From NCBI GenBank assembly GCA_963721525.1, contig CAVRJL010000008.1, positions 1 to 64,000 of the forward strand: a stretch of DNA of 64,000 nucleotides, read 5' to 3'. The stretch's first letter is position 1, and every line of letters begins with the position of its first letter. The DNA is from an uncultured Negativicutes bacterium. GTDB lineage: Bacteria > Bacillota > Negativicutes > JBAXTZ01. Under the pieces are notes generated by a model. That model made no database searches, was not told the DNA's origin, and was given only the letters and a program-made list of their open reading frames with translations. Shown piece by piece: positions 3,934 to 54,444 of the stretch. The position numbers and the translations under genes are program-made.

Positions 3934-4212
3934 TCAAAAATCAAATTCTAATTGACCCGTTTCTGCGGTTTCAAAAAACCACCAAGGCCAATTGTATCCA
4001 TCTCTATAAATATTTACAGAACGACCATCTGGATGGATAAAGCTGGTTAATTTGATTTTTGTTCCAGCTTTTTTTAAAATATACTCAACATCAATTCCAT
4101 AATTACCATTTTCTCCTATTGCCTCTTCTAATTTTCTTTTATTCAGAAATTTTATTTCTTTTCCTAATCTTGTGAGTAAGTATTTACATGTTTTTTCTTT
4201 TTGTGTTATCAT
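3934..4212 (-). CDS. Small protein ending in QLEFDF
   Basis: C-terminus ...TGQLEFDF*. Confidence 0.8.
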   Translation of the reverse strand: MITQKEKTCKYLLTRLGKEIKFLNKRKLEEAIGENGNYGIDVEYILKKAGTKIKLTSFIHPDGRSVNIYRDGYNWPWWFFETAETGQLEFDF

Positions 4213-4220
4213 GATAATAT

Positions 4221-4247
4221 ATAGGGACAGTTATTAACTGTCCCTAT
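4221..4247. terminator. Intrinsic terminator-like hairpin
   Basis: ATAGGGACAG/CTGTCCCTAT inverted repeat between genes. Confidence 0.6.
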
Positions 4248-4284
4248 TTTATGCTCCTTTATTGGCAGTATTTGCATCGAGCAA

Positions 4285-5130
4285 CTATCTATAAGAAAGA
4301 ACCCCGCTGGCTTCGAGAGTATTGAAAAGGTTATTTATAATGCTATCTTCGAAATATCTGGTGAGTATTGCGGGATGAACCGGAAACTTTTCATGGAGAG
4401 TGTCGAGGATTGCTACCGCATAATTATATGCGTTCTCCATATGTTGCCATACTACGAATTCCTTATAGGAATGTGCTCCGTAGTAACCCGAGCTCAGATT
4501 GGCACAGGACATTACGTTCCTGATGAAATCAGCATCAGAACACATTCCCGTAGAAGGGAAATAACCAAATTGTTTTCCAACATTATGAAGTGCCGCTTCG
4601 AAATCAGGATGCCCGTATCTGTTGTTAGCGCAGATTATGTCTGTGTTTCCCTTCCTGTCGAGAATTATGCCGAATGGCAATACAGAAAGTTCCTTCTTGA
4701 ACTCTCTTACGAAAGTCTTGGCGCTGGCGGCTATTACTGTCTCTTCCCCGTCCGAGAAGATGAAGTTGAAGCGTTTTCCTGCTCGAAGCATTTCGAGGAT
4801 GATGAATACTCCGCACATATCATCGCCACCGAGAACTGCTTTTCTGTTACGAAATATAGTGAATACTTCACCTGTTTCTGTTGGCTCGCTGTCGAACATT
4901 TCGACGTTGAACTCAGCCCTACCGTCGCACCCTTTGGAGCGAACCGTATCTGTATGGGCCGAAAATAGAGGAAGCGTTGGGTCATCTATGTTATAGATGG
5001 TGGTACCTTCGTATATAGAATACGTGATACCGAGTTCTTCCAGATTTCTCTTGATGAACTCATGAATTGGCTGGTTGAAATTCTCTCTTGAAGGGAGCTT
5101 CAATAGCTCCAAAAATCGCTGTCGTTCCAT
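4285..5130 (-). CDS. M20/M28-family zinc metallopeptidase-like protein
   Basis: Motifs SAHTDTV, LGGDDMCG, DGEE, LDRKG, GYYGAHS. Confidence 0.8.
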   Translation of the reverse strand: MERQRFLELLKLPSRENFNQPIHEFIKRNLEELGITYSIYEGTTIYNIDDPTLPLFSAHTDTVRSKGCDGRAEFNVEMFDSEPTETGEVFTIFRNRKAVLGGDDMCGVFIILEMLRAGKRFNFIFSDGEETVIAASAKTFVREFKKELSVLPFGIILDRKGNTDIICANNRYGHPDFEAALHNVGKQFGYFPSTGMCSDADFIRNVMSCANLSSGYYGAHSYKEFVVWQHMENAYNYAVAILDTLHEKFPVHPAILTRYFEDSIINNLFNTLEASGVLSYR

Positions 5131-5152
5131 TCGAAAGCCCCCTTGTAAAAAA

Positions 5153-5446
5153 TTAAAAATCGAATTGTATTTGAGAAGAAGCTGGTTCTATCCAGTTTTC
5201 ATGAACTAATGAAATATAATCTCCGTTCTCTTTATCATTTTCTGTTTTGGATATTTTATAAATTTTAAACCACGAATCTGTTTCATTTATATAAAACGTA
5301 TCTGGAATGTATTCTTTTTCATTTATCCAAGCATCTACTGATAGCCTTGCTGTTTCTATACATCCTCCTATAAAGGGTCTCCCACTTATATCTTCATCTT
5401 TTATAAGAGATTTGTTTTTCAGTTTATATTTGATGGATAAATCCAT
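5153..5446 (-). CDS. Small protein ending in QIQFDF
   Basis: C-terminus ...SSQIQFDF*. Confidence 0.8.
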   Translation of the reverse strand: MDLSIKYKLKNKSLIKDEDISGRPFIGGCIETARLSVDAWINEKEYIPDTFYINETDSWFKIYKISKTENDKENGDYISLVHENWIEPASSQIQFDF

Positions 5447-5447
5447 A

Positions 5448-6575: not shown

Positions 6576-6809
6576 CTAAAAATCAAATTTCATTTGTCGG
6601 TTATATGGTATCAAATCGTCTTCTAAAAAGAAATCTCCACTTAACACGTAACTTTCATGAACTTTATAATCAGTTATTGTTAAAAATCCTTGTTTTTTAA
6701 ACAAAATAGCAGGAGTTCTTCTGCTTTCTATATATTCTTTTTGAGTTTTATATCTATCTCCTGCACTTTTTTTTATTGGAATAACTTTGTCACCGACTGA
6801 ATACTTCAT
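6576..6809 (-). CDS. Small KOW/SH3-like protein ending in QMKFDF
   Basis: MKYSVGDKV start; ...RQMKFDF*. Confidence 0.8.
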   Translation of the reverse strand: MKYSVGDKVIPIKKSAGDRYKTQKEYIESRRTPAILFKKQGFLTITDYKVHESYVLSGDFFLEDDLIPYNRQMKFDF

Positions 6810-7506: not shown

Positions 7507-7698
7507 TTAGAAATAAAACTCTAATTGTTCGCCTTTTGCTAAAACAAAATACTCATTGAACCAATAAGTTTTAGGAATTCCTTCTACTTCTATATGCTGT
7601 AATTTTAATTTTGATACTACATATACATTTCTTTGTATCATTTCTGGACAAGGTGAAAGTGCTATTCTTTTTACTTTATCTCCAACTTTGAAAGTCAT
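7507..7698 (-). CDS. Small KOW/SH3-like protein ending in QLEFYF
   Basis: MTFKVGDKV start; ...GEQLEFYF*. Confidence 0.8.
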   Translation of the reverse strand: MTFKVGDKVKRIALSPCPEMIQRNVYVVSKLKLQHIEVEGIPKTYWFNEYFVLAKGEQLEFYF

Positions 7699-7707: not shown

Positions 7708-7974
7708 TTAAAACTCAAATTCTATTTGCTCGCCAACAGATAAACTTTTTAAGATTAAATTGGCTTGCTTATGTCTTTCTTCTATATTGTCAAGAATACA
7801 AACAATATGTCCTTTTATGTCGAGCGGGCATCTGTTTTCATGGCAATAAGTTCCAATGCAATGACATATTCCATCTTTATTATTTATAAAGTTATAAACA
7901 ATGGATGCTTGAATTTTTTTAGTTATTTTTTCTTCTTTTATATCATTTATTTCTTCGGTAGTATAATACTTCAT
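7708..7974 (-). CDS. Small Cys-rich protein ending in QIEFEF
   Basis: CHC..C..CP motif; ...ILKSLSVGEQIEFEF*. Confidence 0.8.
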   Translation of the reverse strand: MKYYTTEEINDIKEEKITKKIQASIVYNFINNKDGICHCIGTYCHENRCPLDIKGHIVCILDNIEERHKQANLILKSLSVGEQIEFEF

Positions 7975-8328: not shown

Positions 8329-8637
8329 TTAGAAATCAAATTCTATTTGCTCACCAACAAATAAAGATTTCAGTATTTTATTTATAACGTCAACACTTAT
8401 TTTTCTATAATCAATTATAGGGCACGTATTATTAAATTTTTCTTTACATATGCTTTCACATATGAGATAATTTGTAACGCAACAATTAAGGGGGTATTTT
8501 TTAGTAAAAACATCTTTATATAGATGATGAAAAAACACATTACTTATTTCTTTTTTATTTTTTAAGACATAACTTACATTTTCTTCAGTAATTCTTTCAA
8601 AACCAAAATTATTTTCAATATCTTTTACAGTTATCAT
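8329..8637 (-). CDS. Small Cys-containing protein ending in QIEFDF
   Basis: ...ILKSLFVGEQIEFDF*. Confidence 0.8.
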   Translation of the reverse strand: MITVKDIENNFGFERITEENVSYVLKNKKEISNVFFHHLYKDVFTKKYPLNCCVTNYLICESICKEKFNNTCPIIDYRKISVDVINKILKSLFVGEQIEFDF

Positions 8638-8649: not shown

Positions 8650-8889
8650 TCAAAAATCAAAAGATAATTGCTCGCCAATTTTTCTATATAAAATGAATCT
8701 TCTTTCTTCATAAAAACTACTTTTTCCTTTCAAGTTTACTAATGGCTGCCCTGTTTCAAAATGCTTGCCGACTACTTTGCTGATGATATATTTTTCGCCT
8801 TTTTTTATTGTTTTTAGTTTTTGAATATATCCATTATAGGTAGATGTGTCACTTACACATATTACTACATCATTGACTTTAAGCATCAT
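8650..8889 (-). CDS. Small SH3-like protein ending in QLSFDF
   Basis: LKVNDVV start; ...GEQLSFDF*. Confidence 0.8.
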   Translation of the reverse strand: MMLKVNDVVICVSDTSTYNGYIQKLKTIKKGEKYIISKVVGKHFETGQPLVNLKGKSSFYEERRFILYRKIGEQLSFDF

Positions 8890-9101: not shown

Positions 9102-9335
9102 TTAGAAATCAAACTCTATTTGCTCGCCTATATAATAATATGGTTTTATTGAAACCATATATCTCATATAAACATTATAGGAACATTTATCAACAATAAA
9201 TCTTACTAACGGATAAAAATCTCCATCTGCTCTAATTATTTTCCCTATCATTCCTTTTTTAAAATTTGAACTAATATCTTCTATTGTTATTACTTTGAGG
9301 CCATTTTTATATAATGATTTTTCTTTCTCTGTCAT
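9102..9335 (-). CDS. Small protein ending in QIEFDF
   Basis: ...IGEQIEFDF*. Confidence 0.8.
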   Translation of the reverse strand: MTEKEKSLYKNGLKVITIEDISSNFKKGMIGKIIRADGDFYPLVRFIVDKCSYNVYMRYMVSIKPYYYIGEQIEFDF

Positions 9336-9799: not shown

Positions 9800-10039
9800 T
9801 TAAAAATCAAATTCTATTTGCGGCTTTGAATACCTTTTATACAATTCTAATGCTTTTTTATTTCTTATATATTTGAAATTAACATTACGAGGAGAACAAA
9901 GTTCTTGAACAGGGCAACACTCTCCATGACAGCCACCAATTATATAACTAGAGCTATCACATCCCTGATTGCCTTTTATGTCTAAACTTTTTTCACCGAT
10001 AGATTTCAAAAATAACATTTGATTTTTTGTATATTTCAT
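9800..10039 (-). CDS. Small Cys-rich protein ending in QIEFDF
   Basis: CCPVQELC; ...KPQIEFDF*; resembles 10049..10330. Confidence 0.8.
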   Translation of the reverse strand: MKYTKNQMLFLKSIGEKSLDIKGNQGCDSSSYIIGGCHGECCPVQELCSPRNVNFKYIRNKKALELYKRYSKPQIEFDF

Positions 10040-10048
10040 ATTAACTCC

Positions 10049-10330
10049 TTAAAAATCAAATTCTAATTGTTCTGGCTTGAAGGTTAGTTTTTTGTAAAGT
10101 TCATATGCTATTTTATTTCTCTTTATGCCTTTAATCGGACAATAATCTGTTACAAGACAATCCCTACATGTTATTATTCTGCTATCTGGACCATAGCATA
10201 ATCCTACTTCATGTCCATGTAGATAATTATCAGAAAGTTTTTTGAGTATTTTTAGTTGTTCTTTCTCTATCTGCTGCTGTTGTTTTGTTGCCATTATATT
10301 TTTAATTAGGAGGGTATTTCTACCCTCCAT
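10049..10330 (-). CDS. Small Cys-rich protein ending in QLEFDF
   Basis: CRDCLVTDYC; ...PEQLEFDF*. Confidence 0.8.
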   Translation of the reverse strand: MEGRNTLLIKNIMATKQQQQIEKEQLKILKKLSDNYLHGHEVGLCYGPDSRIITCRDCLVTDYCPIKGIKRNKIAYELYKKLTFKPEQLEFDF

Positions 10331-10570: not shown

Positions 10571-10828
10571 AACTTGCCTCCTGTGTATTTGATTGCTGTT
10601 TTCCTTGTGAGATAATTATAACTTTTTTACAGAACTTTGGCAAGGATTTATTTTTTTGTGAAAAGCAAACTTACTTCCCATAGAAATATACCTATGTAAA
10701 AGTTTATCCATTCACTACCTTCAATGGAAGATTTAGTAATTTGGAAGGAGAAAGGTAACGAAAAAACAGGTGATTTGTAGATACTTTTAGTTAGTTTTGT
10801 GTTTTTCATTACCCTTTCCTTCTAAAAA

Positions 10829-11368
10829 TTATTCCATCCTGATGGGGAGGATGAGCGCGACCTTGTTCTCCAGAGAGAACATCACGGGTTTCTCGGGAGA
10901 GTACCATGCCACGGAATACTTATCCTCCGAAGCGCCGAGCTCTTGAACGAAATCATAAGAAATAGTCGTGGGCTTTGGGAAGTTTCTGATGAGCTTGGCG
11001 TATTCGAGCGCCTGCGTCACCTTGTTGTTCGAGCAGATGAACTCTACTCTTTGTGCCGGGTCACCGTTTTCGAACTTGGAGTCGAAATTGGGAATCTTTT
11101 CTTTGAGCTCGGCTTCGGGGATGGCGAGGCAGATGCGGTCCGAAGAACAGACGATAATGGCATAGTTGCCATTGATGAAAATGTCCTTATCGAGTCCGGT
11201 GACCCGATGGATGCGATTTTTGTCGGTGACGGTGAGGACGCCATTCTTGATGTTGGCGTAGGAAATGAACTTGGTGGGGTCATCGTTCTTCACTATCTTG
11301 GTCGCCCAAAATAGGTCGGCGGCGAGTTTGGGGTCATCGACCTCAACCATAAACTTGAACTTATTCAC
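10829..11368 (-). CDS. Truncated beta-sliding-clamp (DnaN)-like protein
   Basis: Ordered motifs VTDKNRI (cf. ATDGHRL), IPNF (cf. FPDY), ISYDFVQEL (cf. FNxxYLxD), KPVMF and terminal LILPIR (cf. VVMPMR); 179 aa, about half of DnaN. Confidence 0.6.
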   Translation of the reverse strand: MNKFKFMVEVDDPKLAADLFWATKIVKNDDPTKFISYANIKNGVLTVTDKNRIHRVTGLDKDIFINGNYAIIVCSSDRICLAIPEAELKEKIPNFDSKFENGDPAQRVEFICSNNKVTQALEYAKLIRNFPKPTTISYDFVQELGASEDKYSVAWYSPEKPVMFSLENKVALILPIRME

Positions 11369-12751: not shown

Positions 12752-13314
12752 GATTTACTCCTTTGAAAAAGATAAAAAAAATGAGAAGAGTTTATCATAG
12801 ACGAAAGACAGTTTTTCAACTATCTTCTGGTTAGGCAATTTCCAGTTTGTTTTCCATATTTCGGCGGCAATGCTTACTTTGAAAAACAGTCTTATTTTCC
12901 TCGCGTCGACCTCACTGTTGGAGTTCGATTAGGATAGCCACTCTCCTCATTCTACCCTTTTACATGATTTCGAGTCTAACAGTAAACTCAATTTCTGCTA
13001 CTTGGGATTTGCCTCATATTCCTCTCACGAGGAAAACAAGTTTGACGATGTTAGTATTGAAACCAGTTACGGGATTACTCCCTAAACCATCGTGCTACAC
13101 ATGCCGTTTCTTTAACTTCAGCCCGGCCAACATATCCTATGACCCAAGGGTGGGCAACCGTTTCTCCTATGAACGGAAGTGAATGTCAGTATAACGCCCT
13201 GATGACGCAACTACTTTTATCTAAAAGCAGGAGTAGAAAATGTGTTTGTCAGCACAAGTAAGAACCGAAGTCCTATTCATCTGCCTTAGCACCTATTTTA
13301 TTACTTATACAATA

Positions 13315-13343
13315 ATTATAGCAAAACTAAAACATTTTGTCAA
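13315..13343 (-). promoter_or_regulatory. sigma70-type promoter driving non-coding units
   Basis: TTGACA-N17-TATAAT with extended TG. Confidence 0.8.
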
Positions 13344-13742
13344 GAAAAAAATGGTAATGTCTAAGGTAGTAAAGCTACTGCTTCGATACCGGTATCTAAG
13401 CTGTTGTGACTTATCATTGCCTGAGAATAGTGGCACTTATGCCTGTTCTCTAAGAAAAATAAAGCGGTGCAGGCGCTGCCCCTGCTGACTGGAAACTGCA
13501 ATAGTTCCAACTACCATACCACCGCAAGGATGGGATTAGCGTCTCTACTTCCGCCTTTGGCCAATGTTTAGCGAGGCGTCAAAGACCTCCCTCTATGGTT
13601 TCCCATAGGTTGACAACTATTTTGCGACTACGTTGTCAAAGTACGTTGTCAAAGTCGTTTGAGCTACTTCGCACCGGACTTCAAGCAAGGGGTTGCGGTC
13701 CCTCATTGTGATAGAACGATGCTGATACCTCATTTACAAAAT

Positions 13743-13837
13743 TATCCCAGCTTGGATTTGAACCACAAGGCTAATTTTTTACAATTAGCAGATTTCTCGA
13801 TTGAAGTCGAGCGTCCTTGGCATTAGACGACTGGGAC
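13743..13837 (-). tRNA. tRNA-Glu-like or pseudo-tRNA with abnormal anticodon loop and extra hairpin
   Basis: Acceptor GTCCCAG/CTGGGAT, Glu-type D arm GTCT..GGAC, stem CTCGA/TCGAG with 6-nt loop CTTCAA, inserted hairpin GCTAATT..AATTAGC, T loop TTCAAAT. Confidence 0.55.
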
Positions 13838-14777
13838 ATGCGTTGTGACTGTAGCTGACAGTAAGCAGGTTGAAAACCTACCATCACCTTGTTTGGGCAC
13901 TCACATCAACATAGCGCCAGACTTGTTACAATCACTATTTATTTACATGAAAAAAGCAATAGCAGATGACGATACCTTCATCCCCTTCTTATCTCCTCGA
14001 GGGAGAACTTTGGCATGCGTGTTTAAACGCACACTGCTCCGGTTGCTATTGCTACTTTATTACATAAAATGAGGATTGCTTCAGAAGGTGCTCTCTGTCA
14101 CCCCTCAATGGGGATGGTAATCTCTCTTTTGTATGGCTACTGCACCGTCTAAATTGTTTAGGGTATGAGATATAGTAGGCGCTAACCTACTTCTATCTAC
14201 TTCCACCCCGACACCATACTCAACCTACCCTAGAAATAGGATTTTTATTTATTTACATGAAAAAAATAATGGCAGATGGCGAGTTCTCCATCCCATACAG
14301 GGGCATTTTTACCTCCACCAAGGAGAAACCCTACTTCACGTTTTTAGACGCGCGTTTTCTTTGGTATGTTGCCATTACTTTTTATAAGACGTTTGGTATT
14401 GAAACCAGTCCCGATTACTCATTAGTTTCCTAACTTTCACCAAACACGTCTTTATCCAACCCGCCCTACACGGGTCTTGTAGGGATTTTTCTCTTGTATG
14501 GCCTACGGTTTTACCGTATCAACTACAAGAAGGTTATCCGCAGGCTTCCTGCTTTTCTTGGTATGTAGTAACCAGCAAGAAGATAACCTGTACGGAGTTT
14601 CACCGTTGCCACGCGAAGTGTGGGTGGCAGTAGGACTTTCTTCAAGGAATTACTTCCGAGAAGTGCCTTTACCTTCTAACATCATTGGCGGAGTGCGAGC
14701 GAGGAACGTCCTGCCCCGCACTCAGGCCATGTTAGTTGGTTATGCGGGCCATTCCACTAGGGAAGTGGCCGGCTCGG

Positions 14778-15152
14778 CTACGCTACACGCTCCTCGGAAC
14801 CCTCGGCATCTTCTGCCTGGGTCTTAGGAGCCTCGATTCCGCCCACCACGTTGGTGATGAAACGGAACTGGATGTAGCGGGTGCCCTCGTCAAGCTTGAC
14901 AGTGGCGGTCTTCTCGTTGACCTTGAGAACGACGGATTCGCGGGTGGCGCCCTTCATGGTGAAGGTTATCTTCGCGCCTGGCGCGAGCTTAGCCTTGGCA
15001 TCTTCGATGCGCTTGGCCTCGATTTCGGCCTTGGATGCCTTAGCGGCTTCCTTGACCTCATCCTTGCGGGACCTCAGAAGCTCAGTGGCCTTGGCCTTGA
15101 CGGCTTCCAGATCTTCGACGGAAAGTCCGTCTAGGATAGTGAGATCGAACAT
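14778..15152 (-). CDS. Lys/Ala-rich protein, helical N-terminus plus SH3/KOW-like C-terminus; paralog of 25498..25986
   Basis: FDLTILDGLSVEDL...ELL...KITFTMKG...RYIQF versus FDMSILDTLSIDEL...ELL...SITFTMNG...RYIHF; strong RBS; GC-rich codons. Confidence 0.85.
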   Translation of the reverse strand: MFDLTILDGLSVEDLEAVKAKATELLRSRKDEVKEAAKASKAEIEAKRIEDAKAKLAPGAKITFTMKGATRESVVLKVNEKTATVKLDEGTRYIQFRFITNVVGGIEAPKTQAEDAEGSEERVA

Positions 15153-16030
15153 GGTTCAACCTCCTTTATCTGAAATAACCGTAGGGAAGGCCCGCGACGC
15201 GAGCTTCTTTATTCCCTCGGTAACATAAACATAACATTTTCCAAAGTTTTTGTCAAGGAAAATGTTTGCCCATTGTTCCTAAAAGAAGGGCAAGCTGAGT
15301 CGAACTTACGTCCGCGCTCCTCCTATCAGAGTGCTTGCCCCAGAGCATTTCTGCCCGTATAGCGCTTATGCGTTTAGATAACCTTTTCAGGTTAGCCATT
15401 CGCAAGTGCCGGAAACCCGGCGAGCGGCCAGTATGCAATGGGAATTACTTCCCGGGTTGCCTAAAAAATAGGCGGTGCTTTGACGGATGGGTTGGGCTGG
15501 CTCACTGAGAGCTCTGGCCGAATTGGTTGTCGTCCGTGTTACTGGCTACCGCCCTATACAAATGGAGTTACCTCCAAATTGCCTAAAATAAGAAGCAGTA
15601 AAACTTTCGTTCTCGTAAAGGGCACCTCCCCTTTACTACTGCTCCAAGCTGGTGTTTTCTGCCCTCCGTAGGGAGCAACGATAGCCAGCAAAACGTATTC
15701 GGTGGCTTTATGCTTTTTGCATAGGTGAACCGCCGAAAGAGCCCTTGACGTTCGCACGCAATTTGCGGGCCAGCCGTTAGGCAAAGCCGATTGCGGAACT
15801 ACTTGTCTGAACGCCGCGTTTGGCACCCGAAGGGCCTAACAGGATGATGGCGTTCTCGGACTTAACAGGTCATTACATCCTGCATTGTAGATTGCCGTTC
15901 GTTGACGGTCAGGGGGTGCTTTCATCCCTGCTTTTACCCACATAGTCCATTTATTGGAAAGCTCAGTAGCCCATTAGAGGTATCGGAGGGTCTTGCCGAC
16001 TGCCCGAACTTCCCTTTTTATTTCCTTACA

Positions 16031-16065
16031 TAATAATTGTAGCATTTTCCAGAAACTTTGTCAAG
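16031..16065 (-). promoter_or_regulatory. sigma70-type promoter, exact 35-bp duplicate of 17158..17192
   Basis: TTGACA-N17-TACAAT; identical TAATAATTGTAGCATTTTCCAGAAACTTTGTCAAG at both sites. Confidence 0.85.
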
Positions 16066-16216
16066 TTTTTTTTATTTTCCTTTTGGCTGGATAAGTTTTA
16101 TTCAGGAAACTTCCTCTGCCACGCTACGAGCAGATTGAAACCTGCTGAAATGCTGTTTGACCCTCTTGTGAAAGGAAACGTCTAACAGGTAATTCCGTTC
16201 TCCAAGGTCATACTAT

Positions 16217-28598: not shown

Positions 28599-29499
28599 TT
28601 AAAAATCAAATTCTAATTGTTCTTGCCTAAGTAATTTATAATATTTTTCATATTCTTTATATTCAGCTAATAATTGTTTGTCGGTGTTTTTAATTTTCAC
28701 AAACATACTATTGCTATCAGCATTATCTATTGTAATAACATCACCTTCTTTAAGAGTATATCCATCAAACCAAGTTATTTGTTGTATAATTTTTAATTTA
28801 TCTCCTGTTTTAAGCTTCAAAATTCAAACTCCAATTGCTGATTCGCCTTTCTAAAATAGCTTTTTGGAAGTTGTAAACTTTTTCCAGTTCTATATATATA
28901 GACATCTATCCAAACATCTATATCTGAATTATCTGATAATAATTTTGCTTTTTCATTTTCGTGTATAATATCCATGACTGTTCTGGTTATTATAACTTCT
29001 TCATTTTTTTTATACATCATTAAAATCAAACTCCAATTGACCTAGTGTTGCCATTACAAACCAATCTTCCGGCCAGCCGTAAATTTTTTCTTCATCTTCT
29101 AAAAGCCTATAAGTCGTATAATATAAAAATGATTTATCGTTTGTACTTCTTATATGAAGTATTTTATTTTCATATTCTTTTACAATATTTTTTGAAAAAG
29201 AAGGACATAGTTTTTCTATTTCTTCTATTGATAGAAGCTTTACTTTATCGCCTTGTTTATACTTCAAAATCAAACTCCAATTGTTTATTTACTGCTTCCC
29301 ATTCACCTTCTATAAAAATAAATTCTCTACCTTGCTTTTTAGATTTTATTTTTATATCTTCTTTCTCCCATCCTTTTGGACCTATTTCATATTCAACATA
29401 ATTATCAGAAAATTCTTCTATGGCAAGTCTATACTCTAGCAAAGCACTTATATTTTCTAATTTTTCTTTATTGAGTTTTATTATTCCCTTAACAAGCAT
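28599..29499 (-). CDS. Four overlapping small ORFs (28599-28820, 28817-29029, 29010-29273, 29257-29499), each ending in QLEF[DE]F
   Basis: C-termini QEQLEFDF*, QQLEFEF*, GQLEFDFNDV*, KQLEFDFEV*; promoter TTGACA-N17-TATAAT at 29552-29524. Confidence 0.8.
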
Positions 29500-29566
29500 T
29501 GAATATTTTTCTCCCTGTGAATAATTATATAATTTTTATAAGTTTTTGTCAAGATATTTTTTTTTG

Positions 29567-30572: not shown

Positions 30573-30806
30573 TTACTCCTTAAAATTAAACTCTAATTGT
30601 TTAGGGTTTAATTTTCTATATTTAATATATTCTATTAATTTTGGACTATAAATATTAAAATAATTCATTCTATGTAGATAGAATATACTTCCAGCATCTT
30701 TCTTACTCCATTCATTATATTCTTCTAAAAACTTTTGACCAAATAATTTTCTAATATCATCAAATGGAGTATCATGAAATACTGGTAATTTTAATGTTTC
30801 TAACAT
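30573..30806 (-). CDS. Small protein ending in QLEFNFKE
   Basis: C-terminal motif variant. Confidence 0.75.
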   Translation of the reverse strand: MLETLKLPVFHDTPFDDIRKLFGQKFLEEYNEWSKKDAGSIFYLHRMNYFNIYSPKLIEYIKYRKLNPKQLEFNFKE

Positions 30807-42270: not shown

Positions 42271-42753
42271 TCAGGTTTTAAATAAGGACCTTTGTTTAAA
42301 AACTACGCAGCGATGTAACGCTTTTGCTATCGTTTGTTTTTTTAATTCGCAATTAATAATTCCATCTTTTTTATTACAATAAATACAATACTCACACCCA
42401 CTACAACCAGGAAGAAAAGAAGCTATTACAAAAAAATAATTTACTAATATCTCTTTGTTTATCTTACCATTTATTGAGTATTCAATAATTATATTTTTAT
42501 CTTCTTCTATTCTTGAAGTAAAAGTAAAAATGTCTGATAAATTTGAAAGCATAACTTCATTTATTTTTGAGTTTAATTTATCATATAAATCATATCTTTT
42601 ATCTGATGCTATTTTTAATACAGGTTTGTTAGCTGATAATTCAAAAATTTGAAAACATCTATTTCCTTCATTTTGGAATTTCACCGCAACTAATAACTCT
42701 ACTGATTTTATCCCTGTAAACACTGTTGACCAGTTCATATAAATCCTTCTCAT
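42271..42753 (-). CDS. Hypothetical protein with C-terminal Cys cluster
   Basis: CSGCEYCIYC..C..C. Confidence 0.6.
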   Translation of the reverse strand: MRRIYMNWSTVFTGIKSVELLVAVKFQNEGNRCFQIFELSANKPVLKIASDKRYDLYDKLNSKINEVMLSNLSDIFTFTSRIEEDKNIIIEYSINGKINKEILVNYFFVIASFLPGCSGCEYCIYCNKKDGIINCELKKQTIAKALHRCVVFKQRSLFKT

Positions 42754-44493: not shown

Positions 44494-45051
44494 TTACACA
44501 TAATCGTTTCCTAAAATCTTTTTTACTAATGTTAACAATTTTTGATTTTGAGCTACTATCATTCTTTTTGTATTGTTTGTTCCAAAAATAGAAATATATG
44601 CTTTTGAAAATACAAATAAATAAATAGGATAAGCTTCTATTTCTAATTGCCTTCTTTGAAACTTATCACTCAAAAACAAAAATATGCTAAAAGGACTTTT
44701 TCTATCAGAGCAAAAAGATTTTACCAGCTGATATCCAGTTATTACATCTTTAATTATTTGTTCGTTTTTATCTGGTTGCCCTTCAAAACGAAATTTATAT
44801 TCTTGAAATGTATTCCAAGCTCGTTCTGTAACAAGTTGCGGTGGATATATTTTTCCAAAGCTTTCAAATTGACATTTTATAAAAATAGATGGATTCCATC
44901 CTTCTCTTCCTGAAAACTTTTCAATAGTTTCTTCAAAGTATTTCCACCACTTACTGTTTTTTACAGTAGTAATGGTAAAAATACGTCTATCATATTTTAA
45001 AAATTCACTACGATAATACATTGCTAAATTGAATATATCAAGCTGTTCCAT
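44494..45051 (-). CDS. Hypothetical protein starting MEQLDIF
   Basis: 185 aa; N-terminal QLDIF resembles the canonical clamp motif QL[SD]LF. Confidence 0.7.
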   Translation of the reverse strand: MEQLDIFNLAMYYRSEFLKYDRRIFTITTVKNSKWWKYFEETIEKFSGREGWNPSIFIKCQFESFGKIYPPQLVTERAWNTFQEYKFRFEGQPDKNEQIIKDVITGYQLVKSFCSDRKSPFSIFLFLSDKFQRRQLEIEAYPIYLFVFSKAYISIFGTNNTKRMIVAQNQKLLTLVKKILGNDYV

Positions 45052-45808: not shown

Positions 45809-46522
45809 TCACTCTCCTATTCTTGCTTTAGAAATTTCAAAGTAATCTTTGTCTAATTCTATTCCTGTAAAATCTCTATTTGTTTCTTTACAAACAACTC
45901 CAGTAGTTCCAGTTCCCATAAATGGATCTAGTATTCTATCTTCTTCTTTTGAAAAATTAATAATTATTTTTTCTACAAGTTCTTTTGGAAAGACAGCTCC
46001 GTGGGTATCGGATATTTTTTTTCCTCTTCTTATCTGCCATAAATTTTGTAGCTCTCCTCTATTAAATTGAGCATTGTCAAATTTTCTACTTATGGCGTTT
46101 TTTTCTTCAAAAACTAATAAAACTTCAAAACGAGAATTTAATATTCCATCTCCAATCGCTGGTTGAGCGTTTACTTTATCCCATATTATTATTTCTTTCA
46201 ATACTTCATTGAAATAACCCATTATCTTAAATAATGCTCTTTTATTTCCAGTTAAAAATTGAATATTATAAAAGGTCATTCTGGAAACTCTAAGGCACTC
46301 TTTTATTATTTTTTTATTAAATTCAAAATATTCTTCCATTGGAAGGTTGTCGTCATAATTTTCATATTTGGTAGATAGTTCTTTTACTATTTGCCTTGAG
46401 CAATACTTTCCATTTCTTATTCTTAAATTCATATTATATGGAGGACTTGTTATTACTAAATCAAAAAAATTATTTTGAAACTTAGACAATTCTTCTAATG
46501 AGTTTCCTTTTATTAAATTCAT
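45809..46522 (-). CDS. DNA amino-methyltransferase (beta class, likely N4C)
   Basis: TSPPY, HGAVFP, ILDPFMGTGTT. Confidence 0.9.
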   Translation of the reverse strand: MNLIKGNSLEELSKFQNNFFDLVITSPPYNMNLRIRNGKYCSRQIVKELSTKYENYDDNLPMEEYFEFNKKIIKECLRVSRMTFYNIQFLTGNKRALFKIMGYFNEVLKEIIIWDKVNAQPAIGDGILNSRFEVLLVFEEKNAISRKFDNAQFNRGELQNLWQIRRGKKISDTHGAVFPKELVEKIIINFSKEEDRILDPFMGTGTTGVVCKETNRDFTGIELDKDYFEISKARIGE

Positions 46523-47235
46523 ATTTCCTCCGCTGTTTCATATAATTTACTAGAAATGCCTTTAGCTCCCCTAAAAGCAGTTCCGTGATCGTGACCATCA
46601 GGTCCAACTCTATTGGATAAGTGTATTTTTCCTTCTAATATATTTTCAAAAAATTTATCCGTCGAAACATTTTTATATATTATAGTTTCTCTTATTATTA
46701 TATAATTTTCTATTATGTCTGCTTTTACATAATATTGATTTTTAAGTTTATTTGTTAAATTTTGTTTTATTTGATCATTATCTTGTTCATAAATAATTTC
46801 TTTATTATTAGATTTTACAAATATATTGTTTCTTTCAATATATAATCTTAATCCATGTTCGTTTTCATATGTAGCAAATATATCTATATATCCTGTTCCA
46901 TATTTTTTATGGAAATCAAATTTATCTGGACTTCTCCAATTAGCTATTGGATTCTTTTTGCTTGGGACTCTTATTCCAGCAGAAAGTAATGTATCAGAAG
47001 CATCACTAAATAAATTTTTTGTTTTTAGCTCAGCAAAACCTAAATCTGGAGTTTTATTATTGTTTTCTTTAATTCCTAAATAGTGTTCTACTGTGCTACC
47101 GATTATTCCATCTCCTCCCCTTATTAAGATTTTTATTGGAATTAATAACGGTTTATTTTTGTTTTCTGCTATAAAATCTCTAAAATTTTCTTCTGTTATA
47201 ACTTTTTCTGGATCATTATTTTTCTCTAATAACAT
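46519..47235 (-). CDS. MvaI/BcnI- or MutH-like restriction endonuclease
   Basis: IGSTVEHYLGIKENN..PDLG..ELKT; HDHGTAFR; coupled to the MTase. Confidence 0.7.
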   Translation of the reverse strand: MLLEKNNDPEKVITEENFRDFIAENKNKPLLIPIKILIRGGDGIIGSTVEHYLGIKENNNKTPDLGFAELKTKNLFSDASDTLLSAGIRVPSKKNPIANWRSPDKFDFHKKYGTGYIDIFATYENEHGLRLYIERNNIFVKSNNKEIIYEQDNDQIKQNLTNKLKNQYYVKADIIENYIIIRETIIYKNVSTDKFFENILEGKIHLSNRVGPDGHDHGTAFRGAKGISSKLYETAEEI

Positions 47236-49329: not shown

Positions 49330-50847
49330 TTACCCTAACTTACGAGCCATTCTTTTCTTTTCTTCATCAGAAGAAAATTTCTTTGTTCCAAACAATATAC
49401 TATTTTTATCCGTATCTCTATATAAAGAAAATAGATATACAGTATTAGGAAGTATTTTTTCTTTAATATTTTTCCAATAATTCCAAAATACTGGAACACT
49501 TATATTATTTCCTCTCATATCAGAGCAATCGACAAATGCCATCTCTCTTCCATTTTTATCATTAAAGGCTCTAAATTTTTCAACTATAACGGGAACAGGA
49601 AGTGAAGTTTGAAAATTCGTTATATCTTCAAAATATCTTCCGCATAAACCTTTTCTAAATCCTTGATTTATAACTGTAACCATTTTATCTGTAAACAAAG
49701 TATGAAAGAAATTAAAACCAAGAAATTCTTTTTCATATTGAGCGAGTAACAATCCTGTTGTTTCAAGACCTGGAATTCTATCTGCTTCTGCTTCTATTTT
49801 ATCCCATACATCAACAAGTTTTTCTGCTATTTTTATATTCTTTTTCTTTTCCAAATATTGTTCGAGAATAAATATGTTTTTAGTTCTTTCGCTACCAATA
49901 AGTTCATCAAATGCTCCAACAGAAACCAAAGCATTAATTACTGTTTTTGTTATTCTTTCACCTTTTATTTTATGCATAAAATCGAAAAAAGAAATATATG
50001 GTTGATTATCTACTATTTTTGTAGCAGGAACATCGCCTATACTTTTTACTTCATTTAGCCCAAAACGAATATTGTTTCCTTCTGGATGAAAATGAATTTT
50101 TGATTTATTTATATCAGGAGGAAGAATAGAAAATCCTTGTAGTTTACATAAAGTAAGTTTTTCTTTTAAAGGAGCATCTTCTTTTCCTTTGTAAGTTAAG
50201 ATAGAACTAAAATAATAAACTTTAAAATAAAATGATAAATAAAGATTTATCATAGATATATAAGTATAAGCTACACAATGACTTAAATTAAAAGAATAAG
50301 ATGATAATTTTAATAAATCATCAGCAACAACTTTTGCATCACTTTTTTTTATTCCTTTGCTTACTGCACCATTTTCAAACTTTTTAACAACCTCATCCCA
50401 TCTATCCAAATCTATTTTTTTCTTATCTGCCTTTCCCAAAATTTTCATTAATGCACGAACTTCATTAGTTTCCGAAAGGGTAAAGCCACCAATAATATTA
50501 AATATAGACATACATTGTTCTTGATATATAGCACATCCTGCCGTATCTTTTAAAACTTCTTGAACTTGTTGAGGATATTTATTTATTCCATTATCTCTAC
50601 TATTTAAATAATCATCTACAAAATTAATGGTTCCTGGTCTCGCAAACGCAGAAACTGCACAAACTTCATCAAAATTTTTTGGTTTTATTTTTTTAACAAG
50701 ACCTTCTGCGGTTTGGGCCGATAATTGAAATGTATTTATACTTCTATCTTCATTTAACTCTTCATATAAATTTTTATCAGTTAAATCTAAATCATAAAGA
50801 AAATCTTTTAGTTCTTGCTTTGAAACTTCGCGAACTATCTTAATCAT
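49330..50847 (-). CDS. dnaE: DNA polymerase III alpha, piece 4 (fingers, HhH, OB fold)
   Basis: TFQL, ARPG, IYQEQ, YSFNLSH..AY, ILPPDINKS, IRFGL..VKSIG, KNGREMAF. Confidence 0.9.
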   Translation of the reverse strand: MIKIVREVSKQELKDFLYDLDLTDKNLYEELNEDRSINTFQLSAQTAEGLVKKIKPKNFDEVCAVSAFARPGTINFVDDYLNSRDNGINKYPQQVQEVLKDTAGCAIYQEQCMSIFNIIGGFTLSETNEVRALMKILGKADKKKIDLDRWDEVVKKFENGAVSKGIKKSDAKVVADDLLKLSSYSFNLSHCVAYTYISMINLYLSFYFKVYYFSSILTYKGKEDAPLKEKLTLCKLQGFSILPPDINKSKIHFHPEGNNIRFGLNEVKSIGDVPATKIVDNQPYISFFDFMHKIKGERITKTVINALVSVGAFDELIGSERTKNIFILEQYLEKKKNIKIAEKLVDVWDKIEAEADRIPGLETTGLLLAQYEKEFLGFNFFHTLFTDKMVTVINQGFRKGLCGRYFEDITNFQTSLPVPVIVEKFRAFNDKNGREMAFVDCSDMRGNNISVPVFWNYWKNIKEKILPNTVYLFSLYRDTDKNSILFGTKKFSSDEEKKRMARKLG

Positions 50848-51065
50848 TATCTATTTCCAGTAGTGCTTGTGTTAGGATTCCATAAATTAGTAATAGCAGC
50901 AGTAGTAGTAGTAATATTACTATATGCTATTGTATTTATTGTATAATAGAAGTTAGTATGGTTACTATATATTTTGGTTAATTTACTCATAGCTTCTTTT
51001 GCTAATTGTGCTTTTTCTTCATTGCCATCGAAATCGAATTCTAATTGCCTCGGGTCCCTTTTCAT
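50847..51065 (-). CDS. Small protein with N-terminal RQLEFDF
   Basis: MKRDPRQLEFDFD; stop overlaps the dnaE piece-4 start. Confidence 0.7.
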   Translation of the reverse strand: MKRDPRQLEFDFDGNEEKAQLAKEAMSKLTKIYSNHTNFYYTINTIAYSNITTTTAAITNLWNPNTSTTGNR

Positions 51066-51076: not shown

Positions 51077-51505
51077 TTATACTATTACCGATATATTATA
51101 ATTTTCACGCTCACCATAATTATTTATTGTAAATGTAATACTTACCCTACTGCCATATAAACTATAATTTCTTTCAATAGTAAAATTTATAATTTTTTCA
51201 GCAACTAAAAAATCAGACATTGCTAATCGCAATCGTTCCATAAATTCATTAATTCTTGTTTCAGTTACTGGAATAAATACAAGTTGACTACGCACAACAT
51301 TTACAGTTTCTTGTATTTGTGCTCTGATTTCAGCATTAGTAAGAGGTCTTTCAAGATTAACATCATAAATAAGTTGCTGATAATAAATAGTGTTATCAAA
51401 AGTTGAAGGAGCCATTGGATACACTTCAGCAATATTTATCCAGAAAGTATCTTTTTTTGGCTTCTCGTCAAAGTCAAATTCCAACTGCCTGTTCTCTTTC
51501 TTCAT
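51077..51505 (-). CDS. Protein with N-terminal RQLEFDF
   Basis: Start MKKENRQLEFDFD after AAGGAG. Confidence 0.7.
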   Translation of the reverse strand: MKKENRQLEFDFDEKPKKDTFWINIAEVYPMAPSTFDNTIYYQQLIYDVNLERPLTNAEIRAQIQETVNVVRSQLVFIPVTETRINEFMERLRLAMSDFLVAEKIINFTIERNYSLYGSRVSITFTINNYGERENYNISVIV

Positions 51506-51851
51506 CTTCAAGCTCCTTATCCCAAACTTTTTCAACTATATTATCATAACTTATAAATTTAGCAATAGTATCACGCTTACGAGACTTCCTTAAAATCTCA
51601 CGTATTCTAAAATCAGAATTAGCCCACATAAAACTAAATATATTTTTATCTGGATTTACTTTCCCTTCTAACACTTTTTTGTATAAGTTTAAACAGCATT
51701 CTTGTGCCATATCTTGGCGTATATCTTCACTACTTATTTTATATTTTTGTGAAAGAAGAAAATCACTTATTTTGTATGCTTCCTTGAATACATAATCCCA
51801 ATTTTCTTTTAGAAATTCTTGCTTCAATTTTATTTTATCTACCGCTAACAT
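51474..51851 (-). CDS. Short sigma-factor-like protein (region 2; T4 gp55-like candidate)
   Basis: EDIRQDMAQECCLNLYK...KNIFSFM...IREILRK. Confidence 0.5.
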   Translation of the reverse strand: MLAVDKIKLKQEFLKENWDYVFKEAYKISDFLLSQKYKISSEDIRQDMAQECCLNLYKKVLEGKVNPDKNIFSFMWANSDFRIREILRKSRKRDTIAKFISYDNIVEKVWDKELEDEEREQAVGI

Positions 51852-51862
51852 TTAATTCCTTA

Positions 51863-52123
51863 TTAATCAGATTTTGGAAAGATTTCTAATAGTGTTGCTA
51901 TATCGCTAAAATCTACCATCAATTTCCCTACCATTATTGCTATCTTTGGTATAGATTGAGCTGGGTCTCCTTCTGTATCAGAACTATTATAAAATATAGT
52001 TTCCAACGCATTGAAATAAGCTTGGCACTCTTCAAACTTACTTTTCACTAACAAAACTTGGTCTTCCCCTTTAATCATTTTTTTCTCCTTACTATTCTTA
52101 TACCATTTATAAAATCTCGTCAA
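51863..52123 (-). CDS. Hypothetical protein (likely start MIKG)
   Basis: AAGGAG before the internal ATG. Confidence 0.6.
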   Translation of the reverse strand: MTRFYKWYKNSKEKKMIKGEDQVLLVKSKFEECQAYFNALETIFYNSSDTEGDPAQSIPKIAIMVGKLMVDFSDIATLLEIFPKSD

Positions 52124-52133
52124 GATAATATAA

Positions 52134-52868
52134 ATGGATAATACAACAAATATCTTGACCGAAAGCCTTTACAATCTTACTTTTTTCAATCGTTTATATA
52201 GATATATAATTTCTGAATATAGTGGGGTTACTATAAAGTCTGGTGAGAGTTTTCAAGCTGAAATTACTAGATATTTCCCAGAACAGCTTATTGTTTTAAA
52301 AGATAAAAATGGAGTTCCTCGGAAAACGCACAAGGTTATATTTGATTATAACTATTCTACAAAACGTAAATCCAGTAAACCTCTCTGTTTTTATTCAGAT
52401 AAAGGTGAAATAGTAATTCAAATAAATGCTGCTGTTACTTTTGACAAGTTGATTAATAATCTTGAATCTCCTACTTTTAAAGATATGCTACGGCACGAAG
52501 TTATCCATGCTATGGATATGTTAAGAAGCACAGAAGCATTAGAAGATGAAGACGTAGATGTAGATAAAAAATCAAAGTCAAAACATCATCAAAGTAAGCA
52601 AGCAGAAACATCTAATTATTGGAAAGATGAATATGAAATGAATCAATTTATTCACACAATGGCTCGGTATAAGACGCAATGGCCTACAAAATATAGTAAA
52701 ATAACAAATTTAGATGATATTTTTGACATTATGGATAGTCCTAAATATGGACTTACTGCTTATAAAAGTACCAAATCAATGAGAAACGACCCGAAGCTTA
52801 GAAAAGAAATTTTGAAACGTTTAGCTCGCGAAAATTTACTTCCGCTTGGGTTACGTTCTAAAATTTAG
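52134..52868 (+). CDS. HExxH protein, paralog of 26931..27566
   Basis: RHEVIHAMD; EMNQ; DPKLRKEILKRLAREN. Confidence 0.8.
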   Translation: MDNTTNILTESLYNLTFFNRLYRYIISEYSGVTIKSGESFQAEITRYFPEQLIVLKDKNGVPRKTHKVIFDYNYSTKRKSSKPLCFYSDKGEIVIQINAAVTFDKLINNLESPTFKDMLRHEVIHAMDMLRSTEALEDEDVDVDKKSKSKHHQSKQAETSNYWKDEYEMNQFIHTMARYKTQWPTKYSKITNLDDIFDIMDSPKYGLTAYKSTKSMRNDPKLRKEILKRLARENLLPLGLRSKI

Positions 52869-53298
52869 CTATTTCTTTATTTAAATAACTTTCAGGAACT
52901 ACCTTGGTCAAACCATCGTTGTCTATTATTAAATACAATTTTTCCGAAATCATTTCTATTGTTTGCTCTATAACGTCTAAAATACTTATTCCCAATATAT
53001 CTATTTTTACAATTCCCATACTTTCCAAAATAGATTCACTTCCACTTTCAGGAAATGCCGTTATAATCTCTCCATTTACTCTATCAACTGGTATATAGTT
53101 ATACAAAGGTTTTGGGGTTATTACTACTCCACCAGCATGAGTTCCACAATTATGAACTAAGACATCATCAACGAAAAAATTTGGTTCATTATTGAAAAAG
53201 TCATTCTCGTTATTTGAAATATCATAGCATTCTTCATAACCTATTTCTATGATTGAACAAACTCTGTCAATTTTAGTTTGTTTATTTTTATTACACAT
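52858..53298 (-). CDS. dnaE: Split intein C-fragment (50 aa) plus DnaE piece 3
   Basis: CYDI..NFFVDDVLVHN|CGTHAGGVVI..VKIDILG (third catalytic Asp). Confidence 0.9.
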   Translation of the reverse strand: MCNKNKQTKIDRVCSIIEIGYEECYDISNNENDFFNNEPNFFVDDVLVHNCGTHAGGVVITPKPLYNYIPVDRVNGEIITAFPESGSESILESMGIVKIDILGISILDVIEQTIEMISEKLYLIIDNDGLTKVVPESYLNKEIAKF

Positions 53299-53407
53299 TT
53301 TTTCCCCTCCTCTAAGCTATCATTGTTATATTTATCTCTATTAAATTTATTATACCTATTATCATTTAATTTTTGTAATATTACTAATAATATTTTTTGA
53401 GGAATGA

Positions 53408-54262
53408 TTATTGTTTTACCATTAGTTTATCACCTATCTTCAAATCTTTCATTTTTTTCATTCCGTCTACTGTAAATAAAATATGCTCGTCAGAAGTTCT
53501 TATTTTTTTTCCACTTTCAAGAGTTATTTCAAATACTTTTTTCTTTCCGCTTTTTATGAGTTCATAGTTTTTTGTATATGATAGATCACCATTTGATCTT
53601 AGATAAAGAATAGCATCCTGTTTATTTAGATCTTCTATTTTTTTCTTTCCGCTAGAAGTATCAACGAGCTGATAATGTGGCAAACACTGTCGTATTTTAC
53701 CTATAAAATAGGGAACCAAATCGAGAACAGTTTTATGTTCTGTATAGAACTGATACTGTGCCGGTGAGGTTTCTTGTATTACTTTTATGTTTTCTTCCCA
53801 TGTCAAATCCTTTTGTAAAAATGAAGTAAACAATTTTGAAACTTTGAAATCTACATTATAAATACGCAATAAATCAGAAGCAGCAGAAGCAGGACCCATT
53901 ATTGAATAAGTTCCAACATGAGCAAAGCAATCAGCACCATATTTTTCTTTCAAATGATTTTGTATTTTTGCCTTACCTTCTGATGACCAGTCAGTATCAA
54001 TATCTGGCAAAGAGAAACTTCCATTTTTTACTTGTATTAAATTAGGTTTTTTATCTATCACTTCGTTGGTAATACCAAGTAAAAATGGTATAATATATCT
54101 CTTATCTATTTTATCTTTTTTTTCAAGAAGTTCTTTGTGAAGGTTTCTACCATTATCATAAAATCTTTTTGCTGCTAACATTTCTCTTTTATATGCTAAT
54201 AGATACTGAGGATATTTTTGTATTTCTTTATCGCAATAATTTTTTAATTCTTCATATGTCAA
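53408..54262 (-). CDS. dnaE: DnaE piece 2 (PDIDTD palm) plus intein N-fragment (92 aa)
   Basis: SLPDIDTDW; GKIRQ|CLP...IRTSDEH...DLKIGD. Confidence 0.9.
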   Translation of the reverse strand: MTYEELKNYCDKEIQKYPQYLLAYKREMLAAKRFYDNGRNLHKELLEKKDKIDKRYIIPFLLGITNEVIDKKPNLIQVKNGSFSLPDIDTDWSSEGKAKIQNHLKEKYGADCFAHVGTYSIMGPASAASDLLRIYNVDFKVSKLFTSFLQKDLTWEENIKVIQETSPAQYQFYTEHKTVLDLVPYFIGKIRQCLPHYQLVDTSSGKKKIEDLNKQDAILYLRSNGDLSYTKNYELIKSGKKKVFEITLESGKKIRTSDEHILFTVDGMKKMKDLKIGDKLMVKQ

Positions 54263-54444
54263 AATTCAAACTCCATTTGTCCTTTTTGTGGTTTTATCAT
54301 ATGTATAAAAAGCTGAAATTCACTTGGTATGACAAATACGTAACCTTTTTCTTGCCAACCTTTTTTAACTAATTCGTATCGTATTTTTGCTAATTCTTCA
54401 TGAGTTTCAGCATGGACAGTTATTTCATATTTCATTGATTTCAC
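54259..54444 (-). CDS. Small protein ending in QMEFEF
   Basis: ...KGQMEFEF*; overlaps the dnaE piece-2 start. Confidence 0.75.
   Translation of the reverse strand: MKSMKYEITVHAETHEELAKIRYELVKKGWQEKGYVFVIPSEFQLFIHMIKPQKGQMEFEF

Follow-up and report, generated by a model that had tools for sequence, protein, structure and literature searches.

The stretch of DNA analysed here (hereafter the window) comprises bases 1-64000 of contig C8 (CAVRJL010000008.1; 83,287 bases), which belongs to a 769-kb bacterial assembly of 16 contigs (GCA_963721525.1) assigned to an uncultured member of Negativicutes. By its gene content, established from comparison of 137 proteins with Pfam and 82 with PHROGs, C8 is a phage contig. 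Analysis of its minus strand reveals a hexapeptide, Q[LIM]xFxF (hereafter the tag), in 18 of the 140 open reading frames (ORFs) of at least 50 aa, predominantly in short ones: it is present in 17 of 83 ORFs of up to 110 aa and in one of 57 longer ORFs. An earlier note on this DNA had described these ORFs as unrelated small proteins sharing a peptide that resembles a sliding-clamp-binding motif. We confirmed all 18 at the positions claimed there, all on the minus strand, together with the placement of the tag, which forms the exact C-terminus in 13 ORFs, stands 2-3 residues short of it in three (29010, 29257, 30573), and is near the N-terminus in two (50847, 51077). Our results suggest that the tag is likely a natural variant of the bacterial beta-clamp-binding motif.

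The largest cluster of tagged genes includes, in the order of coordinates, two ORFs with singleton bodies, 3934..4212 (92 aa, end QLEFDF, tag at nt 3937-3954) and 5153..5446 (97 aa, end QIQFDF), followed by 6576..6809 (77 aa, end QMKFDF) and 7507..7698 (63 aa, end GE-QLEFYF), both of which exhibit an N-terminal pattern that by eye resembles SH3/KOW domains. Next to them are 7708..7974 (88 aa, end GE-QIEFEF) and 8329..8637 (102 aa, end GE-QIEFDF), each with five Cys residues, 8650..8889 (79 aa, end GE-QLSFDF), for which a small all-beta domain with a coil tail is predicted and which has a tagged homolog in the metagenomic locus L067, and 9102..9335 (77 aa, end GE-QIEFDF), again with the SH3/KOW-like pattern. 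The cluster is completed by 9800..10039 (79 aa, five Cys, end QIEFDF) and 10049..10330 (93 aa, four Cys, end QLEFDF). Another run of genes comprises 28599..28820 (73 aa, SH3/KOW-like pattern, end QLEFDF), 28817..29029 (70 aa, likely start at 29020, end QLEFEF), 29010..29273 (87 aa, likely start at 29267, QLEFDF-NDV), and 29257..29499 (80 aa, QLEFDF-EV), the last of which has a weakly similar tagged counterpart in locus L074. The tag DNA of 29010 contains the GGAG of the next gene, and that of 28817 contains both the GGAG and the start codon. The ORF 30573..30806 (77 aa, QLEFNF-KE) directly follows the gene for a DnaB-like helicase. The remaining members are located among the pieces of a split gene for the Pol III alpha subunit: 54259..54444 (61 aa, end QMEFEF), in whose tag DNA the next Pol III alpha piece has its GGAG and its TTG start codon, and the two N-terminally tagged ORFs, 51077..51535 (152 aa, with a likely start at 51505 that puts the tag at residues 7-12) and 50847..51065 (72 aa, QLEFDF at residues 7-12), which lies directly upstream of the C-terminal Pol III alpha piece. 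The start codon is preceded by a Shine-Dalgarno-like site in 15 of the 18 ORFs.

The tag is strictly conserved at positions 1, 4, and 6 (Gln, Phe, and Phe, each in 18 of 18 copies), and position 2 is occupied by Leu (11 copies), Ile (5), or Met (2). In 16 of the 18 ORFs it is found within the last 10 residues. Its frequency is far above chance: in a comparison with shuffled sequences, 5000 within-protein shuffles gave on average 0.30 occurrences anywhere in the proteins (maximum 5) versus the 18 observed, and a C-terminal tag appeared on average 0.009 times (maximum 1). None of the 675 ORFs of at least 100 aa from the remaining 15 contigs of the assembly ends with the tag, and we found no such tail in 80 other phage loci (up to 20 kb each, plus-strand ORFs of at least 45 aa).

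The three codon strings quoted in the earlier note are those of 3934, 9102, and 51077, and the suggestion built on them, that selection acts on the peptide, is borne out by the DNA. All 17 close copies of the tag DNA (stretches that differ from the most frequent tag sequence at no more than 3 positions) are in frame within tagged ORFs, with none on the plus strand, out of frame, or in intergenic regions, and all seven differences among them at Gln-1, Phe-4, and Phe-6 are at third codon positions and synonymous. These observations leave little room for the possibility that the tag merely results from upstream ORFs running through some element of the DNA or RNA, such as the ribosome-binding region of the next gene or a recombination site. 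Such an element is hinted at by the TGGAG that in four tags doubles as the Shine-Dalgarno sequence of the next gene, and also by the narrow choice of codons (Leu-2 is encoded by TTR in 11 of 11 tags versus a background of 0.53, p 9e-4), so the history or function of the DNA does matter. In others, however, the Shine-Dalgarno site comes after the stop codon or is absent, therefore a translation signal cannot account for the motif, and two tags lie inside genes near the N-terminus. We regard this explanation as largely refuted and highly improbable.

The bodies to which the tag is attached are diverse. None of the 18 was matched by Pfam, and a single one exhibits a weak match to a PHROG family of unknown function. 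The claim that they are unrelated holds in that no pair of tag-free bodies is similar at E<0.01, but it is slightly too strong, because about seven bodies have in common the SH3/KOW-like start MxxKxGDKV and four have a cluster of 4-5 cysteines (grouping by eye); the 18 bodies thus form roughly two loose groups and seven singletons. In the structural model of 8650, a small all-beta domain (predicted local distance difference test score, pLDDT, 75) is followed by a coil tail (about 57), and its closest folds are SH3, KOW, and Tudor, with weak similarity (Z 4.7, root-mean-square deviation 1.8 over 49 aligned residues; Foldseek E>0.01). In the Atlas, 8650 is placed near small viral proteins, with Phage_T4_Y07B on 35% of the members of one cluster. 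A profile of eight tagged SH3-like proteins retrieved only the window's own proteins from 5.8 billion sequences, and from 1.84 billion representatives it retrieved three outside matches, one of them tagged: P0014, from another assembly, in which the same SH3-like body is combined with QLEFDF. The other two were rejected as tagged relatives: P0012 is an SH3-like tandem that lacks the tag, and P0013 is a spurious match to a repeat protein.

Similarity of the tag DNA among the 18 genes indicates how the tag has spread. In a comparison of 27 bases around the tag (-9..+18), genes less than 2 kb apart exhibit a similarity of 0.70, versus 0.63 for distant genes (permutation p 4e-4), while membership in one body class (classes assigned by eye) has no effect (p 0.23). 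Neighbouring genes with different bodies have a similarity of 0.69 (22 pairs), on a par with all neighbours, and five consecutive tagged genes of two body types share the residues GE before the Gln. Since the tail DNA follows genome position rather than body type, and given the shared GE-Q and the narrow codon use, the data point to copying of the 3' gene ends among neighbours, and not to 18 independent inventions, as the probable origin of the tags. The sub-terminal tags (29010, 29257, 30573, and L074:271-537) have a run of T one base below the length that would place the stop codon right after Phe-6. This pattern, found in two assemblies, suggests that the sub-terminal tags could have been derived from terminal ones by slippage in the T-run.

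The identity of the tag is illuminated by its occurrence in bacteria. We scanned GTDB genomes for Q[LIM]EFDF followed by TAA and found 62 loci, half of them (31) in open frames of 60 or more codons and half in short frames. Of the 31 open-frame loci 25 could be named with Pfam: 16 DinB/IMS proteins, three IS200 Y1 transposases, and one each of PolB, Mor, a DUF772 insertion sequence transposase, the A subunit of gyrase or topoisomerase IV, an ORC-CDC6-like ATPase, and a GGDEF protein. The DinB hexamer comes after the IMS_C domain and the RLLG motif of the little-finger domain, i.e. it occupies the slot that elsewhere contains QLSLF, QLDLF, or QLELEF. Among Bacteroidota DinB proteins (20 scorable of 30 loci) we found eight pentamers, five Leu-4 hexamers (QLELEF, QLELDL), two QxxFxF, one other motif, and four without any; one of the two QxxFxF proteins is from the seed genome. 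In the parts of the cited papers on which we draw here and below, the clamp-binding motif is defined as Q-phi-x-[L/M]-[F/L] or Q-phi-x-[L/M]-x-[F/L], motifs of this kind are reported for the C-terminal tails of Pol II and Pol IV, and the phage-display winner LQLELDF binds in the low μM range (PMC11139829); QVELEF of E. coli Pol III binds the E. coli clamp with a dissociation constant of 2.5 μM (bioRxiv 10.64898/2026.05.27.728225); and transposases (PMC4549789) and Mor/MuC proteins (PMC12867686) are published clamp clients. All 18 tags have the Gln-1, the aliphatic residue 2, and the Phe/Leu-6 of the hexameric definition, and all 18 have Phe in place of Leu/Met-4. The tag also lies in terminal or flexible segments, 16 times C-terminally and twice N-terminally, with a low-confidence coil tail in the single model made (8650). 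Because the same hexamer ends DinB proteins at the slot of the clamp motif, and PolB, IS200, and Mor proteins as well, Q[LIM]xFxF is likely, as judged from sequence, a natural Phe-4 variant of the beta-clamp-binding motif. The clamp-ligand reading of the earlier note thus gained the DinB, PolB, IS200, and Mor proteins in its favour, while Phe-4 departs from the published consensus. In the same scan, gyrase/topoisomerase IV A subunits of Bacteroidales were found to end with GAIQIEFDF, and the ORC-CDC6-like ATPase and the GGDEF protein with Q[LM]EFDF (L115, L116, L082, L086); they are candidate unreported clamp clients.

Directly upstream of the ten tagged genes of the largest cluster, and heading it, is an untagged ORF encoding a 179-aa protein (10829..11368, minus strand), which is a candidate clamp-fragment-like partner. 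We found three homologs of it (57-65%), and nothing like it in annotated phage genomes. In the Atlas, the cluster closest to it among those with a Pfam assignment is DNA_pol3_beta_2 (score 0.93, with 175 features in common, the family being assigned to 21% of the members), and by eye the protein contains TDKxRIH, PNFD, and a terminal MPIR-like end, which we take to be reminiscent of the DnaN pocket motifs. A hidden Markov model (HMM) search, however, gave no match to DnaN, the hhalign probability is under 1% (with a four-sequence profile), and the structural model, with a pLDDT of 35, is unusable. No clamp or clamp loader was recognised by Pfam or PHROGs on C8, which is a genome fragment; an ordinary DnaN is encoded on other contigs of the assembly. 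The pentameric or hexameric motif is also absent from the Pol III alpha pieces, DnaB, the primase, the SbcC/D-like (Rad50/nuclease) pair, and the gp32-like single-stranded DNA-binding protein (SSB), and one phage methyltransferase contains an internal QIRFL. This agrees with the report that the bacterial clamp site is missing from most C-family polymerases of viruses (PMC3201878). Two untagged conserved proteins have related words at their ends: the product of 44494-45051 (minus strand) starts with MEQLDIF, which is not conserved in the ortholog from the related fragment G001, and that of 42271-42753 (minus strand) ends with QRSLFKT, in G001 with QKAGLFKT.

Relatives of the C8 phage differ in the presence of the tag. 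A metagenome scan for the tag followed by a stop codon and GGAG retrieved 26 loci, 21 of which come from a single family of unrelated phages; these encode a nuclease-like protein of 107 aa with DPRQ[LM]EFDF at its end. The protein of this family (L035, L041, L042, L051-L076) is presumably of the VRR-NUC type, although Pfam gave no match; the window ORF 50847 begins with MKRDPRQLEFDF. Locus L074 is syntenic with the window (DnaB 82%, the 29920 protein 67%, thioredoxin 54%) and has three tagged genes, one of which lacks a free C-terminal Phe in its tag copy; the protein in its slot after DnaB, 107 aa long, is tagged, and no similarity between it and the 30573 product of the window could be detected. 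In locus L067, two tagged genes stand in tandem, and one of them is a homolog of 8650 (E 1.4e-5); the locus also contains a 64% homolog of window ORF 14778. Loci L054 and L075 contain the same SH3-like gene ending with QLEFDF, whose connection to this phage is not shown, and the match in L072 is in a frame that is short and doubtful. Among viral contigs, a scan for QLEFDF followed by a stop codon gave 37 loci, 36 of them outside any ORF of at least 35 aa (mostly antisense chance matches) and one a real gene; the scan for tag, stop, and GGAG gave three loci, all from one family of unrelated phages, and that for EQ[LIM]EFDF followed by a stop gave none. Searches via the 530-aa protein, the 14778 protein, and an alignment of 10829 found no close relatives; five records reached via the conserved 29920 protein are not close relatives, lack homologs of 10829, and together contain a single DNA match to the tag pattern (G064). 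In the syntenic fragment G001, none of the eight tagged genes from the replication region is present. Because G001 and another member of the family, G002, are without tags in the parts covered, the tag system is accessory and, judging by these sequences, confined to a sub-lineage. We also considered, and rejected, an essential role of the tagged proteins in linking the split Pol III alpha to a clamp: the three tagged genes located there are absent from G001, and none is found in the covered part of G002. In G001 (L048, about 40-46 kb), several early genes end with IDKK or IDKE, which may be read-through of a TTGACA promoter element, i.e. a false tag made by DNA.

The reading that we favour, and to which we give a little better than an even chance, is that the tag serves as a portable address label that docks small accessory proteins at the host clamp; that the host clamp is the partner, be it in delivery or in competition, appears to us fairly probable. 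In this scenario most tagged genes would be transcribed early by the host sigma70 RNA polymerase, and the tag would bind the peptide pocket of the host clamp on DNA, so that each small folded body (SH3/KOW-like or Cys-rich) could act at or near the clamp, on proteins of the replisome, repair, or defence or on a second surface of the clamp. The crowd of tags would also compete with host polymerases and Hda, and the phage replicase, which lacks the motif, would be spared. Local duplication, together with exchange of 3' ends between genes, is the likely source of new tagged genes. Transcription by the host polymerase is suggested by promoter patterns upstream of the tagged gene runs: a near-consensus sigma70-type promoter at 10615..10643 (minus strand), upstream of the gene run 10570-9102, similar sites on the same strand at 11458-11430, 7492-7464, and 5581-5553, and a consensus TTGACA-17-TATAAT promoter at 29524..29552 (minus strand), directly upstream of four tagged genes, all from a pattern scan.

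We prefer delivery to plain competition because the anchor is constant, the folded bodies change, and the motif falls below the tightest known ones. If the tag only filled the pocket of the host clamp, with the bodies as inert carriers, then many tag copies behind consensus promoters and a phage replicase without the motif would be expected, as observed, and precedents exist: in the parts of the papers used, overproduced MuC kills E. coli via its clamp motifs (PMC12867686), SocB blocks elongation at the same clamp cleft (PMC9690074), and Gp168 of phage Twort demonstrates that phages do shut off the clamp (PMC8565349). One strong inhibitor would suffice for that purpose, however, and competition predicts neither 18 different bodies, swapped in syntenic slots, nor a sub-optimal Phe-4 motif, which makes it unlikely in our view. 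A clamp-type protein encoded by the phage, located in the missing part of the genome or represented by 10829, is a fairly unlikely partner. The position of 10829, its Atlas lead, and its DnaN-like words speak for it, and a private pocket might explain why Phe-4, which deviates from the consensus, is invariant; against it are the lack of HMM and profile matches between 10829 and DnaN, the presence of the same hexamer on cellular DinB proteins, and the lack of the tag motif in the phage replicase, unlike the situation in T4, whose polymerase shares its tail with gp33 and gp55.

It is also conceivable that the tag binds a different hub, such as a protease (as a degron), a pocket for the acidic, Phe-ending tail of SSB, or a virion or packaging protein, and the exact acidic-x-Phe-COOH end of 13 of the 18 proteins is in line with this. 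C-terminal degrons and mimics of the SSB tail need a free C-terminal residue, and in five of the 18 copies, as well as in one from L074, the protein does not end with a free Phe of the tag. The invariant Gln and the aliphatic position 2 fit clamp motifs instead, and DinB carries the same peptide at the clamp-motif slot, hence we find another hub quite improbable. A role as an outer-membrane beta-signal or a PDZ ligand was rejected, as the proteins have no signal peptides and are presumably cytoplasmic.

Several observations weigh against docking at the host clamp. In the part of the source that covers it, position 4 of known ligands is Leu or Met only, and Phe weakened inhibition in one peptide series (PMC11139829); hexamers bind the B. 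subtilis clamp 10-20-fold more weakly, likewise in the part considered (bioRxiv 10.64898/2026.05.27.728225). None of 29 DinB loci from the class of the binned bacterium contains QxxFxF, a pentamer such as QLSLF being present in 17 of the 29, and the bacterium's own PolC-like protein ends with QISLF. The binned bacterium may not be the host of the C8 phage. The GTDB scan asked for one peptide only, so its counts do not measure enrichment, and the 16 DinB matches are mostly kin (Bacteroidota), i.e. they represent one family and not 16 events. There are no tags in the fragments G001 (55.9 kb) and G002 (28.8 kb), which have Pol III alpha at 48-49%. The 83 kb covered are part of a probably much larger genome, and a phage clamp may be encoded elsewhere. 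The tagged bodies belong to no Pfam family and hence have no known effector activity, and the early expression of the tagged genes is deduced from promoter patterns alone.

Comparison with known systems, as far as they are described in the parts of the papers used, delimits what is new. The E. coli hexamers of Pol IV (QLVLGL), Hda (QLSLPL), and Pol III alpha (QVELEF) resemble the tag in Gln-1, aliphatic-2, hydrophobic-4 and -6, and terminal location; the tag differs in having Phe-4 instead of Leu/Met, and it is found on 18 small proteins without known enzyme domains, not on DNA enzymes. MuC and Mor of phage Mu (PMC12867686) also engage the host clamp by motifs at one or the other terminus and are toxic on overproduction in a motif-dependent manner, but theirs are pentamers on one or two transcription factors, whereas here a hexamer is attached to many non-homologous proteins without a Mor domain. 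Twort Gp168 (PMC8565349) and Caulobacter SocB (PMC9690074) are likewise small and halt replication by acting on the host clamp, yet Gp168 plugs the DNA channel and not the peptide pocket, and each is a single dedicated inhibitor rather than a tagged library. In T4, a short C-terminal peptide, LDFL, is common to the unrelated proteins gp43, gp55, and gp33 that bind the clamp gp45 (PMC9690074), and the C8 phage, like T4, has a gp32-like SSB; in contrast to T4, which encodes its own clamp, no clamp was recognised on C8, the peptide is QxxFxF and not LDFL, and the polymerase is of the Pol III alpha type and untagged. Transposases repeatedly gained a C-terminal clamp motif (PMC4549789), and the IS200 transposases ending with QLEFDF in the GTDB scan fit this pattern; in their case, each element carries a single motif, and the enzyme that bears it has a known function. 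The author of the earlier note knew of no described phage system of this scale, and our literature search, for which subscription papers were mostly outside the scope, turned up none: it found no paper with QLEFDF, QLSFDF, QIEFDF, or QLxFxF or with many phage orphans that share a clamp motif. As far as these searches reach, the class of the motif is known, and no description exists of a phage that employs it as a portable tag on one in five of its small genes.

Beyond the tagged genes, C8 encodes the gp32-like SSB, the DnaB-like helicase, a Toprim primase, a Rad50/metallophosphoesterase pair, a DEAD/ResIII helicase, and a tail-tube protein. Its Pol III alpha is distributed over four ORFs with intein remnants, all on the minus strand and with small genes between them: 54641-55915 (PHP/NTPase), 53408-54262 and 52858-53298 (both with intein pieces), and 49330-50847 (finger/HhH). 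In G001 and G002 the protein is split three ways and the intein break is not present; annotated phage genomes include distant relatives only (about 33% for Pol III alpha). Since G001, at 55.9 kb, is rated 24% complete, the whole phage genome is probably about 200 kb or more. Past the window, at C8:81001-83287, the G+C content rises from about 0.3 to 0.6, which suggests a chimeric join or an insertion. The genes for the DnaB-like helicase (30807-33552) and the Rad50-like protein (58398-61947), both on the minus strand, each consist of two ORFs that flank an inserted endonuclease-like ORF, with intein fragments; in G001 each is one ORF. Of two N6/N4 methyltransferase genes (in 45809-47235 and 33539-34851, minus strand), one adjoins an endonuclease gene of the MvaI/BcnI family and the other a nuclease gene of the ICEA family, forming phage-borne restriction-modification-like pairs. 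The window region 12800-26400 is richer in G+C (0.38-0.50), with scarce long ORFs and numerous near-consensus sigma70 promoters; it contains three paralogs (14778, 20127, 25498), and a comparable region is found in L067. It may encode non-coding RNAs or a host-takeover module; an Rfam search gave no matches in the window, this region included. The ORF 21599-22315 contains a tandem 12-base repeat, of about 16 copies, at 21718-21996.

If the tag is a clamp anchor, it would give a cellular address to 18 orphans at once, in a setting where most small phage genes have no assigned function, and the proteins that carry it could at once be listed as natural ligands and effectors of the beta-clamp pocket, which is an antibiotic target. 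The consensus of the clamp motif would be widened to hexamers with Phe-4, and a short linear motif would prove to have been spread across unrelated viral genes by recombination. It is possible, though on balance doubtful, that this lineage uses the motif as a portable anchor for a constantly renewed library of clamp-docked effectors, built by exchange of 3' ends between neighbouring genes and possibly regulated by its own clamp-fragment protein. Were that so, the tag alone would suffice to find candidate proteins that inhibit or modulate host proteins of the replisome, of repair, or of anti-phage defence, each tagged orphan being one of these candidates.

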